Shown here: positions 5,522 through 7,567 of the stretch, piece by piece
Numbering within the stretch: the first letter of the stretch is position 1
Layout: each line of letters begins with the position of its first letter
DNA from: Terriglobia bacterium
GTDB taxonomy: Bacteria > Acidobacteriota > Terriglobia > UBA7540 > JAPUME01
Direction of reading: 5' to 3'
NCBI GenBank assembly: GCA_963555835.3
Contig: CAUVWZ020000002.1
Location: 2,333,450-2,357,449 of the forward strand
Length of the DNA: 24,000 bases
Notes under the pieces: model-generated
Seen by the model: only the letters and a program-made list of their open reading frames with translations
Told to the model about the DNA's origin: nothing
The model's database searches: none
Translations under genes and position numbers: made by a program

Positions 5522-7567
5522 CTACGCCCTCGGCTGCCCGATTTGCACCAACGCCTTTTCCTTGGGCTTGTTCAATACCATCTCCTCGTAGAGCCGCCGG
5601 ACCTCAGCCTCCTGCGCCGCCGTCCGTCTGCGTGCTTTTTCTTCATCAGCCGCGGTTTGCGGCCCCTTGTCGTCGCGGACACGCACGCGGGCCGCGTCAG
5701 CCGCGTCGATGTTGAGCGAGTGGTCGTAGTTCGTAAGCTCCACTTCCTTGCCCTTGGCGTAGATTTCATGCTTTCCGTGGTCCTTGTACCATTCGGCCAC
5801 GGTGGCGTTCTTATGCATGTTCTCGATGATGTTGCGCCAGCCGACGCCGGTGTTGTAGGCGCAGAAGGAAATTTCACCGAACTGTGTGGCATAGGGAATG
5901 ATGCACATCTCGGTGCGGCGGAAGTCGTAGTTGAACAGATCCTGGAACCACATGCCGGCGACAAAGAGCAGGTTCCAGGGGTCCTCGCGCCGCTTCATGG
6001 TGATTTCCTTGGTGCGCTTCCCGGAAACATCTCCGTAGTTCTTGCCCGACAAGCCCCAGGACTTGTCGAACTTCCTGAGCAGCGCCATGAGGGTCAGGCT
6101 GGGCGGCGCCCCAAAGGGTTTGTAGTTCTTAAGCAGCGCCAGGCCCATCATGAAGTTCGAGAACTTCTTGCCTCGCCCCGCATCGGTGAGTTTCCGTATA
6201 TCCGCTACGAGACCCGGCACGTTCAGGAACTCCGGCACAGGGGTCATTTCATTGGTCTTCTTGTTGATCATCAGGGCGGTGCCGACGCCGCAGTTCGGAT
6301 GGCAGCCGCAACTGACCTGGCCCCACTCGGCCTCCGGACCGTGCACCAGGTCCGCGAAGTCCGCGAAGGCGGCCATCAGCGAAAGCGGGAACCAGTCGCG
6401 CGTGGGCTCGGTAAGCCCCGTCTGCTTTTTCACGTCATGGGCCAGGTGAGAGAGCGTGTAGCGCTGCTTCATGCGCCGCTCCGGAGTGATTTCCTCATCC
6501 CGACCCGTGAAGGAGACCGGTTGGAAAGCCACAAAGGCGATCTTTCCGGGGTTTTCGCGGGCGAAATTGATGATCGGCCCCACCTGGTCGTTGTTGACGT
6601 TGTTGACCAGCGTGATGACCAGAATGATTTCGATACCCGCCGCGTGCAGGTTCTCAATGGCCCGGAGCTTGACGTCGAACAGGTTGCCGACCTGGCGATG
6701 GCTGTTCGCGTCGTTGCCGATGCCGTCGAACTGCAGGTAGGCGTAGCGGAGGCCCGCCTCAAAGGCGCGGTCGCAGTAGGCGGGGTCCTTGGCGAACTCG
6801 ATGCCGTTCGTGGCCGACTGCACGCTGTTGAAGCCGAGCTTGCGCGCATAGCGAATCGCGTCGAGGAAGTAGGGCGACATGGTGGGTTCGCCGCCCGAGA
6901 ACTGCACCGACATCTGACGCCGCGGCTTGATCTTCATGGCGTTGTCGAGAATCTCTGTGATGTCTTCCCAGGCAAGCTCATGGACAAATCCCACCTGGTT
7001 CGCGTCCATGAAGCAGGGGTCGCACATCATGTTGCAGCGGTTCGTAAGGTCCACGGTCAACACACCGCCGCGGCCGTGCTTGATGGTGCTGGTGCCGTGG
7101 TTGTGCAAGTCCTTGTCGTTGTGGGCCGGAATGTCACGGCCGGGGAAGTTCTGCTCAATCCAGGCCAGAAAACGGGAGTCCATGGCCATGATGTCCTCGT
7201 ACTTTCCGTGTATCGGACATTCCTTCACCATCCAGATCTCCCCGTTCCGTTCGATGATATCCGCCGGAATCTCGCCTACCTTTTCGTTCATCAGCGATTT
7301 CCAATCCTGCTCGCCGGCGATTATCCGCTCCCGCGCCTCTCGAACGCAGCCCGGGCAGAGCGAATCGGTCTTGCGCGGGAATCCCAGAGTCGGCTTGGTC
7401 TTCTCCCACGATTTGAGAATGGGCTTTTCCGACCACTTGGGGATAAACGTGGCACCGGCTTTGAATTTGTTATTAAAATATTGAATGCCGTTAAAGGTTC
7501 CCCGGGCCAGAGAACACACCACGCTGTCAAAGTACTTCGATGCCCGATTTCCATAAGTCCTTGGCAT
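5522..7567 (-). CDS. radical SAM protein, Tes / GDGT-MAS-like (homologue of archaeal tetraether lipid synthase; candidate membrane-spanning lipid synthase)
   Basis: 681-aa ORF with a good SD (AGGAG) before ATG 7567. It has an N-terminal Cys-pair zinc-ribbon (CPGC ... CPIH) and the radical SAM CX3CX2C motif CNMMCDPC at nt 7013-7036. It also has FSGGEPT, further Cys motifs (CGCHPNCG and MCIIPYATQFGEISFCAYN), and a charged C-terminal tail. Confidence 0.8.
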   Translation of the reverse strand: MPRTYGNRASKYFDSVVCSLARGTFNGIQYFNNKFKAGATFIPKWSEKPILKSWEKTKPTLGFPRKTDSLCPGCVREARERIIAGEQDWKSLMNEKVGEIPADIIERNGEIWMVKECPIHGKYEDIMAMDSRFLAWIEQNFPGRDIPAHNDKDLHNHGTSTIKHGRGGVLTVDLTNRCNMMCDPCFMDANQVGFVHELAWEDITEILDNAMKIKPRRQMSVQFSGGEPTMSPYFLDAIRYARKLGFNSVQSATNGIEFAKDPAYCDRAFEAGLRYAYLQFDGIGNDANSHRQVGNLFDVKLRAIENLHAAGIEIILVITLVNNVNNDQVGPIINFARENPGKIAFVAFQPVSFTGRDEEITPERRMKQRYTLSHLAHDVKKQTGLTEPTRDWFPLSLMAAFADFADLVHGPEAEWGQVSCGCHPNCGVGTALMINKKTNEMTPVPEFLNVPGLVADIRKLTDAGRGKKFSNFMMGLALLKNYKPFGAPPSLTLMALLRKFDKSWGLSGKNYGDVSGKRTKEITMKRREDPWNLLFVAGMWFQDLFNYDFRRTEMCIIPYATQFGEISFCAYNTGVGWRNIIENMHKNATVAEWYKDHGKHEIYAKGKEVELTNYDHSLNIDAADAARVRVRDDKGPQTAADEEKARRRTAAQEAEVRRLYEEMVLNKPKEKALVQIGQPRA

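Follow-up and report, generated by a model that had tools for sequence, protein, structure and literature searches.

Few proxies for continental palaeotemperature and pH are used as widely as branched GDGTs (brGDGTs), yet the enzyme that makes their membrane-spanning chain is still unproven. Bacterial homologues of the archaeal radical SAM enzyme tetraether lipid synthase (Tes, or GDGT-MAS) have already been proposed to fill this role (Zeng 2022; Halamka 2023), which removes any novelty from the same proposal in the initial annotation of the locus examined here. That annotation also held that no bacterial homologue has been established biochemically, and these proteins are indeed still described as experimentally unconfirmed (PMC11868695; PMC13459092). 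The question raised by the locus is whether a 681-amino-acid radical SAM protein, encoded within a stretch of 24,000 nucleotides of acidobacterial DNA (hereafter called the window), is such an enzyme. Because the protein falls in the main published candidate family, finding its gene is not a discovery in itself.

A long-form radical SAM gene with its own terminator

The gene occupies positions 5522..7567 on the minus strand, as initially annotated. Its ATG start codon is preceded at a distance of 8 nt by a Shine-Dalgarno sequence, AGGAG, that can be read directly from the DNA (7576..7580, minus strand). An intrinsic terminator (5431..5474, minus strand) begins 48 nt past the stop codon, and is composed of a 13-bp stem (5474..5441) with 8 G-C pairs that is followed by the T-run TTTTTGTT. 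This stem is the strong terminator that had been noted near 5437-5473, and it is the sole strong terminator-like site on the minus strand. A shadow ORF of 684 amino acids that runs antisense to the gene exceeds the real gene in length.

The protein is a homologue but not an orthologue of Tes

The claimed relationship to MJ0619 and other GDGT-MAS proteins is borne out by both sequence and structure comparisons. A search of a PDB-sized database matched PDB entry 7TOL with E=4.4e-61 over residues 98-582, and NCBIfam Tes (NF045702) is the best-scoring family at 314.9 bits. The AlphaFold (AF2) model, which has a pLDDT of 88.1 and a pTM of 0.88, yields Foldseek matches to 7TOM (E=3.6e-36) and 7TOL (E=2.3e-35) with target-normalised TM scores of 0.87 and 0.88 over ~550 aligned columns. 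The query thus has the same overall four-part fold as GDGT-MAS/Tes (MJ0619, MA_1486), and its matches to other radical SAM structures are confined to the core domain. Against MJ0619, BLASTP gives 32% identity and 215 bits. The published criterion for bacterial ‘Tes homologues’ (E < 1e-50, identity >20%, length >400 aa; Zeng et al. 2022) includes the query, whose values measured against MJ0619 are E=4.4e-61, 32% and 681 aa.

The protein is therefore a true homologue of GDGT-MAS/Tes. However, the initial description of a bacterial Tes homologue does not extend to orthology. The score of 314.9 bits lies below the 450-bit equivalog cutoff of the NCBIfam Tes model, on which relatives from the query’s clade score 239-414 bits and Tes-proper representatives score 474-593. 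Identity of the query to GDGT-MAS/Tes is only 28-32%, and values of 29-32% are typical by BLASTP for its clade as a whole. A neighbor-joining tree built from 483 alignment columns of 30 taxa separates, with 100% bootstrap, the query’s clade (clade B), a sister group represented by a T. roseus protein (clade C) and the sequence P0126 from MJ0619 and all cutoff-passing sequences. Ligands for one of the auxiliary clusters of Tes are also missing, as described below. The query is thus a member of a separate, more distant bacterial long-form clade. Its host differs as well, since it is a bacterium with fatty-acid-based glycerol-3-phosphate lipids, unlike the archaea that carry GDGT-MAS.

Most metal-site residues of Tes are conserved

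The query shares with GDGT-MAS/Tes the CX2C...CX2H site, the CX3CX2C motif, the FQPVSFTGR loop, the C-terminal cluster Cys residues, the labile Met and the Tyr. All motifs quoted in the initial annotation lie where it had placed them. The first of these sites belongs to a rubredoxin-like or zinc-ribbon domain (7178..7372, minus strand) with the ligands C71 and C74 (CPGC, residues 71-74) and C117 and H120 (CPIH, residues 117-120), which carry the rubredoxin-like C-X2-C...C-X2-H motif as defined previously (PMC9433317). Pfam PF23545 (Zn_ribbon_HMPTM) recognizes the protein with E=1.3e-13 and 50.7 bits versus a cutoff of 27, and Pfam Radical_SAM was also matched. C117 and H120 align with MJ0619 C33 and H36, and all four ligands are invariant in 121 family members. 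The spacer within this site is X42 in the query versus X20 in GDGT-MAS.

Where Tes has its [Fe4S4]N auxiliary-cluster domain, the query carries a linker (7058..7177, minus strand; pLDDT 85-97) that is devoid of Cys ligands. There is no Cys between residues 118 and 177, and D153, H157, S160 and K163 occupy the positions of MJ0619 C73, C77, C80 and His. This difference does not absolutely separate the query from the HMM family, because P0216 passes the Tes cutoff yet also lacks the [Fe4S4]N ligands.

The radical SAM motif CNMMCDPC (residues 178-185; 7013..7036, minus strand) provides C178, C182 and C185, which are family-invariant and align with MJ0619 C98, C102 and C105; FSGGEPT follows at residues 223-229. 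The SAM-lid loop FQPVSFTGR (residues 348-356; 6500..6526, minus strand), whose role was described previously (PMC9433317), is identical in MJ0619, such that Q349, S352 and R356 correspond to Q268, S271 and R275.

Further downstream in the protein, the motif CGCHPNCG (residues 420-427; 6287..6310, minus strand) includes C426, the equivalent of MJ0619 C338. This is the Cys of HQHCG, which is probably a ligand of the C-terminal auxiliary cluster [Fe4S4]C. C420 and C422 form an extra invariant Cys pair that is missing from MJ0619. Equivalents of C422 are common in Tes-proper representatives (CHxxC), and an equivalent of C420 occurs in only two of these. The C-terminal cluster region (5852..5953, minus strand) contains M539, C555, Y559 and C569, with MCIIPYATQFGEISFCAYN spanning residues 554-572. 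M539 is the equivalent of the labile Met439 of MJ0619 and Y559 that of its conserved Tyr459; the roles of the Cys residues, the Met and the Tyr have been described (PMC9433317). Together with C426, these four residues align with the MJ0619 sites and are invariant in 121 relatives, and residues 541-560 have 100% identity with the family consensus. It is therefore plausible from the alignment that the query binds an [Fe4S4]C cluster via these putative ligands. Failure of the C-terminal Cys motifs to align with Tes had been named as an outcome that would speak against the initial annotation. They align with the [Fe4S4]C ligands, and thus the assignment withstands this test.

Both ends of the protein extend beyond GDGT-MAS. 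The N-terminal extension of ~65 residues (residues 1-65; 7373..7567, minus strand) is basic and rich in aromatic residues (12 K/R, 11 W/F/Y), includes a helix predicted at residues 5-32 with pLDDT above 90, and carries P43, W45, P64 and R65, which are invariant in our alignment of the family (A1). It has no counterpart in archaeal GDGT-MAS, and is also carried by the T. roseus protein P0131. This extension may act at the membrane interface. The C-terminal extension of ~90 residues (residues 591-681; 5525..5797, minus strand), likewise missing from GDGT-MAS, comprises a conserved WYKDHGKHEIYA segment and then a charged tail in which residues 639-664 are predicted to be helical.

A possible role in coupling of lipid tails

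The reading that we favor, with a probability of roughly 0.4, is that the clade-B query is a radical SAM enzyme that resides in the cytoplasm, probably as a peripheral membrane protein, and performs Tes-like tail coupling. Such coupling is plausible because the rubredoxin site, the radical SAM cluster motif, the SAM-lid loop and the C-terminal Cys, Met and Tyr residues are all kept. By analogy with Tes, the [4Fe-4S] cluster bound by the CX3CX2C motif would cleave SAM to form a 5′-deoxyadenosyl radical, and this radical would remove a hydrogen from the carbon at the end of a lipid tail. In acidobacteria, the likely substrate would be a glycerolipid tail in the form of an iso-C15 acyl or alkyl chain, which ends in the same way as a phytanyl chain. 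Tes binds ester-linked phosphatidic acid (PMC8941075), and iso-branched tails terminate like phytanyl tails (PMC13274423). The resulting carbon radical may then be held at the C-terminal auxiliary [4Fe-4S] cluster, on one of its sulfides; C426, C555 and C569 would serve as ligands of this cluster, M539 as the labile ligand and Y559 as a nearby residue. A second SAM turnover would activate the second tail and permit C-C bond formation, yielding a membrane-spanning chain of the iso-diabolic-acid type or the brGTGT/brGDGT type. Electron transfer might be served by the rubredoxin-like site (C71, C74, C117, H120), and the N-terminal auxiliary-cluster relay of archaeal Tes would be missing from this scheme.

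Radical coupling of two fatty-acid tails, the reaction proposed here, has been proven for the radical SAM enzyme Mss of Thermotoga maritima and Thermoanaerobacter ethanolicus, a likeness that we draw from published descriptions of Mss. In 3D models Mss reportedly shares the catalytic architecture of Tes (PMC13274423). T. maritima and T. ethanolicus have no BLAST match to Tes (PMC13159169), and therefore Mss is not detectably homologous to Tes. No mss gene was found in selected acidobacterial genomes (PMC13159169), and the lack of this alternative enzyme there favors a coupling role for the query.

Several observations count against a coupling role for the query: the fully supported split from Tes proper, the missing [Fe4S4]N site, the lack of linked lipid genes and the presence of a closer Tes in S. 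usitatus. This organism has two Tes homologues of very unequal similarity to MA_1486, namely Acid_5929 (545 aa, 40%, e-139) and Acid_2410 (714 aa, 30.1%, e-62), and the literature favors the close homologue Acid_5929. The query resembles Acid_2410, as judged by length and similarity profile only. Likewise, Ca. K. versatilis has a Tes homologue with 42% identity. Acid_5929 and the Ca. K. versatilis protein, being closer to Tes, are the more obvious coupling enzymes, in which case clade B would be a paralogue that may act otherwise.

It is quite possible, albeit at less than even odds, that the query is such a paralogue, with the Tes fold and a lipid-tail substrate but without being the primary tail-to-tail synthase. 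The membrane-spanning bond would then be made by the Acid_5929 type (clade A), and the query might carry out another radical modification or serve another substrate class. Options include ester versus ether lipids, closure of brGTGT to brGDGT, or a mid-chain cross-link. The deep division from Tes proper agrees with this explanation, as do features that clade B has as its own: loss of [Fe4S4]N, the invariant C420/C422 pair and the two terminal extensions. Moreover, radical SAM homologues that act on lipids can switch chemistry, as evident by a Gmm homologue that is a desaturase (bioRxiv 10.1101/2025.10.20.683597).

The sister group also lends weight to a change in function. The T. roseus-type long form (WP_014786616.1; clade C) groups with clade B at 94% bootstrap and is 40% identical to the query (E=2e-157). 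The two share the N- and C-terminal extensions, the rubredoxin site and the radical SAM motif, and both are without [Fe4S4]N. However, clade C lacks C420, C422, C426, C555, Y559 and often C569, all of which the query keeps. Having lost the [Fe4S4]C Cys residues, clade C has no coupling cluster, which indicates that the lineage is functionally labile.

On the other side, the Met, the Tyr, the three Cys residues and the SAM-lid loop used for Tes coupling are strictly conserved in clade B, and the sequence suggests no alternative product that could be named. The brGDGT maker E. aggregans argues in the same direction, since it reportedly has a single Tes homologue (32%, e-61). The scores of this homologue, like those of Acid_2410, are typical of clade B (29-32%). 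It is possible, though less likely than not, that the long-form clade without [Fe4S4]N, and not the close Tes, is the enzyme common to acidobacterial brGDGT producers, with the T. roseus-type sister providing a further lipid-directed radical SAM activity. If this were true, the origin of the brGDGT palaeothermometer lipids would have to be sought in genes of the query’s type.

The comparison sharpens the list of targets, because acidobacterial ‘Tes homologues’ comprise three types. The first is close Tes, in which all four metal sites are present; the second is the long form without the N-terminal cluster, which includes the query; and the third is the long form from which the coupling cluster has been lost too. 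In the available portions of Zeng et al. (2022) and Halamka et al. (2023), the two homologue types are not split by cofactor content. Presence surveys that pool the three types at one BLAST threshold misjudge potential brGDGT makers, and the types need separate treatment in expression tests.

A non-lipid substrate is improbable

The query might instead be a cofactor- or peptide-modifying radical SAM enzyme that shares only ancestry with Tes. Many family members are labelled ‘7,8-dihydro-6-hydroxymethylpterin dimethyltransferase’ (HMPT) by JGI, but this label derives from an old annotation of MJ0619 that was not corroborated by the structure paper (PMC9433317). The second-best NCBIfam model is that of the radical SAM (seleno)protein TrsS (NF045646), which has a rubredoxin-like domain and a radical SAM core in common with the query. 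Its score of 215.6 bits is nevertheless far under the cutoff of 490, and the best-matching stretch covers only the shared N-terminal half (residues 91-384), leaving out the Tes-type C-terminal domain of the query. Models for maturases and SPASM proteins (mycofactocin rSAM maturase, PqqE, SkfB and others) reach at most 45 bits and match only the core, and no SPASM Pfam domain was matched in the query. Although the missing lipid-gene neighbours would suit a non-lipid substrate, the query has the C-terminal lipid/cluster domain specific to Tes, in alignment with that of Tes itself, and we regard this explanation as improbable.

Distribution, selection and genomic neighbourhood

The nearest relatives are named as Terriglobia or Acidobacteriota, in agreement with the acidobacterial origin initially assigned to the DNA. 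Relatives occur in Terriglobia (including Solibacteraceae), in Blastocatellia/Pyrinomonadaceae/Chloracidobacterium and in Gemmatimonadota. The family is very large and frequent in Acidobacteriota, and the query’s long form is highly abundant in soil metagenomes. Iso-diabolic acid is made by acidobacterial subdivisions 1, 3, 4 and 6 (PMC13274423), which together with this distribution favors a coupling role. Two observations count against such a role: Tes homologues were reported in only 3 of 14 acidobacteria that produce iso-diabolic acid (PMC13159169), and among the relatives T. roseus is the only cultured subdivision-1 species.

The family is under strong purifying selection, with 73% protein identity across loci whose QueG proteins share only 48%, and this counts in favor of the coupling reading. 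A frameshifted methyltransferase downstream and IS elements upstream might suggest that an archaeal gene was acquired horizontally and is now decaying or no longer functional, but this idea is effectively refuted by the conservation data. The copy in a sister strain is 97% identical, and identity across classes is 69-77%, with invariant ligands. In addition, the ORF is intact, its ribosome-binding site and terminator are good, and its GC content is that of the flanking core genes.

Clustering of the ORFs from 81 loci revealed no conserved lipid-gene partners in any lineage, and therefore the view of this gene as a stand-alone unit is upheld. Recurrent neighbours encode QueG, a low-complexity protein (36 loci), DUF2461, SDR, HesB/IscA, LysE, SurE and others. 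The downstream methyltransferase was considered as a brGDGT methylase and rejected, because its reading frame is broken in this genome and whole only in the sister strain, and because it does not recur as a neighbour across the family. A 3-kb match in locus L048 does not carry an intein, since its additional length comes from an adjacent, separate radical SAM gene.

The upstream region

The non-coding region upstream of the gene (7568..8344, minus strand) is ~97% shared with strain L081, and this homology stops at 8344, where mobile DNA starts. The next small ORF lies 774 bp away, and this gap is the longest among 78 related loci (median 314 bp). The region had been described as unusually long and rich in repeats; its length and repeats are real, but they are atypical for the family, and the long gap is a trait of the strain lineage. 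The suggestion of dedicated regulation does not hold up, because the region borders an IS-insertion junction, next to an IS hotspot, and is atypical for the family. The gene’s strand showed no sigma-70-like promoter, and no Rfam family matched the upstream region. A riboswitch or other known RNA was considered for this region and rejected; the lone Rfam match is a sub-threshold chance match (24 bits versus a 45-bit gathering score) that falls on the terminator downstream of the gene.

An inverted repeat that forms an extended hairpin is located at 8082..8187 (no strand assigned) and includes a perfect 21-nt tandem duplication at 8148-8187, of which two matches occurred in 0 of 100 shuffles. 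The inverted copy at 8082-8099 creates a predicted hairpin of -71 kcal/mol (z = -7.0). This duplication is strain-specific, being absent from the 97%-identical strain. The upstream repeat is not a dispersed element, as no further copy of its motif is present in the rest of the window or in the 81 loci. Three copies of TTTTCAGYAAG with 20-21-nt spacing (7980..8031, minus strand) are conserved in L081.

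A clade of bacterial tetraether lipid synthase homologues

The radical SAM gene at 5522-7567 (reverse strand) encodes 681 amino acids and carries an AGGAG ribosome-binding site 8 nt 5′ of its ATG. Each of the motifs attributed to this ORF by the initial annotation was found at its quoted position: CPGC (residues 71-74), CPIH (residues 117-120), CNMMCDPC (residues 178-185; nt 7013-7036, reverse strand), FSGGEPT (residues 223-229), CGCHPNCG (residues 420-427) and MCIIPYATQFGEISFCAYN (residues 554-572). The strong terminator is likewise present, as a hairpin with a G+C-rich 13-bp stem and a trailing T-run (5474-5441, reverse strand) 48 nt past the stop codon. 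An antisense ORF of 684 amino acids (5543-7597, forward strand) spans the whole gene and is longer than it. This ORF is a GC-rich shadow of the radical SAM gene, and a trap for any gene caller that chooses the longest ORF.

The protein had been described as a stand-alone bacterial homologue of the archaeal tetraether lipid synthase (Tes, or GDGT-MAS). Pfam places a Zn_ribbon_HMPTM domain at its N terminus and also recognizes a Radical_SAM domain. The best NCBIfam model is Tes (314.9 bits, below the curated cutoff of 450), followed by TrsS (215.6 bits versus a cutoff of 490), while peptide-maturase and SPASM models yield at most 45 bits. Among solved structures, the sole full-length match is Methanocaldococcus jannaschii GDGT-MAS (7TOL; E=4.4e-61, query residues 98-582). 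An AlphaFold2 model generated from an alignment of 76 sequences is confident (mean pLDDT 88.1, pTM 0.88) and matches 7TOM/7TOL with E-values of about 1e-35 and target-normalised TM scores of 0.87-0.88 over about 550 columns, whereas for the fold matches that follow (MoaA, SkfB and viperin) the overlap is confined to the radical SAM core. Because neither sequence nor fold matches revealed a better fit to another subfamily with the C-terminal cysteines left unaligned, the protein is a genuine homologue of Tes. The interpretation is thus borne out in part: homology is correct, but the protein is a member of a distinct paralogous clade and not the Tes orthologue.

GDGT-MAS has four metal sites, namely a rubredoxin-like site (C9-X2-C12-X20-C33-X2-H36), an N-terminal auxiliary cluster ([Fe4S4]N; ligands C73, C77, C80 and a histidine), the radical SAM cluster, and a C-terminal auxiliary cluster ([Fe4S4]C) with a labile Met439 and the fully conserved Tyr459; its SAM-lid loop bears Q268, S271 and R275 (PMC9433317). 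Alignments reveal that the bacterial protein retains the rubredoxin site (C71, C74, C117 and H120), the radical SAM motif (C178, C182 and C185) and an identical lid loop (FQPVSFTGR). In its C-terminal domain, C426, C555 and C569 align with those of the M. jannaschii protein MJ0619, and M539 and Y559 are equivalent to the labile methionine and the conserved tyrosine. In contrast, the [Fe4S4]N ligands are replaced by D153, H157, S160 and K163, and no cysteine occurs in the segment aligned to this region. The retained ligands are invariant across 121 relatives, as are two additional cysteines, C420 and C422. An equivalent of C422 is common among Tes-proper sequences (CHxxC), whereas one of C420 is rare there. 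Also unlike GDGT-MAS, the protein is extended at both ends, by a basic, aromatic-rich stretch of about 65 residues with a confidently predicted helix at the N terminus and by about 90 residues at the C terminus. The protein shows no evident transmembrane segment.

Searched exhaustively, 1.84 billion cluster representatives yielded 552 relatives at E<=1e-30, and a tree built from full-length representatives resolved three groups. Clade A (Tes proper) includes MJ0619 and every sequence above the NCBIfam cutoff (474-593 bits), and these carry the [Fe4S4]N ligands with the exception of one Parcubacteria sequence. Clade B (bootstrap 100%) is the long-form group that includes the protein studied here, and clade C (bootstrap 100%) includes WP_014786616.1 of Terriglobus roseus DSM 18391. 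Clades B and C group together at 94%, and their split, together with the family protein P0126, from clade A is supported at 100%. This CPR-bacterial protein (P0216 / P0283-P0285; Parcubacteria, Minisyncoccales) scores 584 bits, above the Tes cutoff, yet lacks the three [Fe4S4]N cysteines, and therefore this cluster has been lost more than once.

The T. roseus protein and about 110 relatives (P0386-P0504) are about 620 amino acids long and lack the [Fe4S4]C cysteines and the conserved tyrosine. Clade C shares both terminal extensions with the clade B protein (40% identity, E=2e-157). However, C420, C422, C426, C555 and Tyr559 are gone, and often C569 as well, so that clade C is reduced to the rubredoxin and radical SAM sites. 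Judged from these residues, its chemistry cannot match that of Tes. The practical value of this division is that acidobacterial 'Tes homologues' split three ways by cofactor content, which defines genes for separate testing.

Clade B proteins are widespread and conserved. More than 8000 database entries match the protein, and the majority of the best 120 share 75-77% identity with it. The named ones belong to Terriglobia or Acidobacteria, and the annotations in use are 'radical SAM protein', 'tetraether lipid synthase' and the obsolete 'HMPT dimethyltransferase'. Scanning species-representative genomes gave 596 relatives, the best 80 of which are 69-77% identical and derive from Terriglobia (Acidiferrales, gp2, Solibacteraceae), Blastocatellia/Pyrinomonadaceae/Chloracidobacterium and Gemmatimonadota.

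Possible functions of the clade B protein

The tetraether-lipid hypothesis for such genes is already published, and the protein is a newly added member of a known candidate family. Zeng et al. 2022 report 456 bacterial Tes homologues, with acidobacterial entries that include E. aggregans (32%, e-61), Ca. K. versatilis (42%, e-149) and S. usitatus (40%, e-139), and put forward a role in brGDGT synthesis (PMC8941075). For S. usitatus, Halamka et al. 2023 give two homologues, Acid_5929 (545 aa, 40.2%, e-139) and Acid_2410 (714 aa, 30.1%, e-62) (PMC10087280). By length (676-723 aa) and similarity to archaeal-type Tes (29-32% identity, about 200-230 bits), the family examined here appears to match the Acid_2410 profile rather than that of Acid_5929. 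As the initial annotation stated, such homologues have been proposed rather than established: papers from 2025-2026 still call them experimentally unconfirmed (PMC11868695; PMC13459092), and the evidence of Chen et al. 2025 is correlative as summarized in PMC13023045.

The most likely function, to which we assign a probability of roughly 0.4, is a Tes-like radical reaction in which the enzyme would join two lipid tails, iso-branched in this case, at their terminal carbons. This assignment by analogy is favored because all features implicated in Tes coupling are conserved except the surface-exposed [Fe4S4]N relay.

The main alternative, which we hold at less than even odds and only a little below the first reading, is a paralogue that carries out another lipid-directed reaction or acts on another substrate class, with the clade A homologue as the true synthase. 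Both types occur together in S. usitatus, the phylogenetic split from clade A is deep, clade B has distinctive features of its own, and the sister clade C lacks the coupling cluster. Tes homologues are also scarce in iso-diabolic-acid producers: Sahonero-Canavesi et al. 2022 detected them in just 3 of 14 (PMC13159169). The same study proved that Mss, a different enzyme, is the membrane-spanning lipid synthase of Thermotoga and Thermoanaerobacter, and mss was not found in selected acidobacterial genomes. Action on a non-lipid substrate is improbable. Decay of the gene is effectively excluded by its conservation: among 20 loci having both genes, median identity to the window copy is 73% for the radical SAM protein and 48% for QueG, which indicates that the former is under strong purifying selection.

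Genomic context of the radical SAM gene

None of the gene's neighbours in the window is tied to lipid synthesis. They encode a CDF transporter, a VWA protein, BamD, Rpe, a class-I methyltransferase, an IS transposase, an EEP-family protein, QueG, an Nramp transporter, aspartate kinase, a TPR protein and GyrB. No recurrent lipid-biosynthesis neighbour was found across 81 loci. QueG recurs in 21 of these, and in 36 (Acidiferrales/gp2 type) a low-complexity protein of about 395 amino acids is encoded on the same strand at about 300 bp upstream (e.g. L016 2312-3499; L009 6582-7727). This protein is absent from the window, and an NCBIfam scan of one representative gave no match. A HesB/IscA-type Fe-S carrier (PF01521) adjoins the gene at a median distance of about zero in six of the 81 loci (L046 11063-11593 and five others, with one Solibacteraceae and one Gemmatimonadota MAG among the six), and could be relevant to maturing a multi-cluster enzyme. 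The family member of a Blastocatellia MAG has another, unrelated radical SAM gene (L048 8001-8354; 29% identity, core domain only) directly upstream of it, which accounts for a spurious 3-kb 'match' at this locus.

The upstream region is indeed unusually long and repeat-rich, as evident by a gap that is the longest of 78 loci (median 314 bp). It contains a perfect, strain-specific 21-nt tandem duplication, an inverted repeat copy that forms a hairpin (-71 kcal/mol, z = -7.0; window 7980-8187) and, within the same interval, three TTTTCAGYAAG units at 21-nt spacing. The proposal of dedicated regulation finds no support. The hairpin and the TTTTCAGYAAG units are conserved in a sister strain (L081), but the 21-nt duplication is missing there. 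In addition, the repeat motif was not found in other loci, the region matches no Rfam family, and no sigma-70-like promoter was detected on the strand of the gene. A more apt description is strain-specific DNA adjoining an IS hotspot, and the gene is plausibly monocistronic, as first suggested.

The sister strain encodes a 97%-identical protein in the same gene order, and window positions 1-8344 align to it at 97%, with homology ending exactly at 8344. At this point begins a strain-specific insert of about 6 kb and low GC content (0.43-0.54; 8345-14337), which carries a DDE_Tnp_1_4 transposase (10700-12031, reverse strand), the EEP-family protein (12077-13081, reverse strand) and further ORFs. 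The sister strain has another IS (DDE_Tnp_1) at the same junction, which gives the interval that separates QueG from the radical SAM gene the look of an insertion hotspot. The class-I SAM methyltransferase gene just 3′ of the terminator (4669-5362, reverse strand) is frameshifted, with two frames that overlap at about 5018-5040, and is intact in the sister strain (230 aa; L081 12206-12898). The window copy is a pseudogene, or else the assembly is in error here. Its position next to the radical SAM gene is not conserved in the family. A 126-nt tandem repeat at 14358-14633 (2.2 copies, 42 residues per unit) matches several repeats within a 321-aa unannotated ORF of the sister strain (L081 7216-8181). 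It looks like a truncated repeat-protein gene at the insert edge, whose units may be TPR-like.
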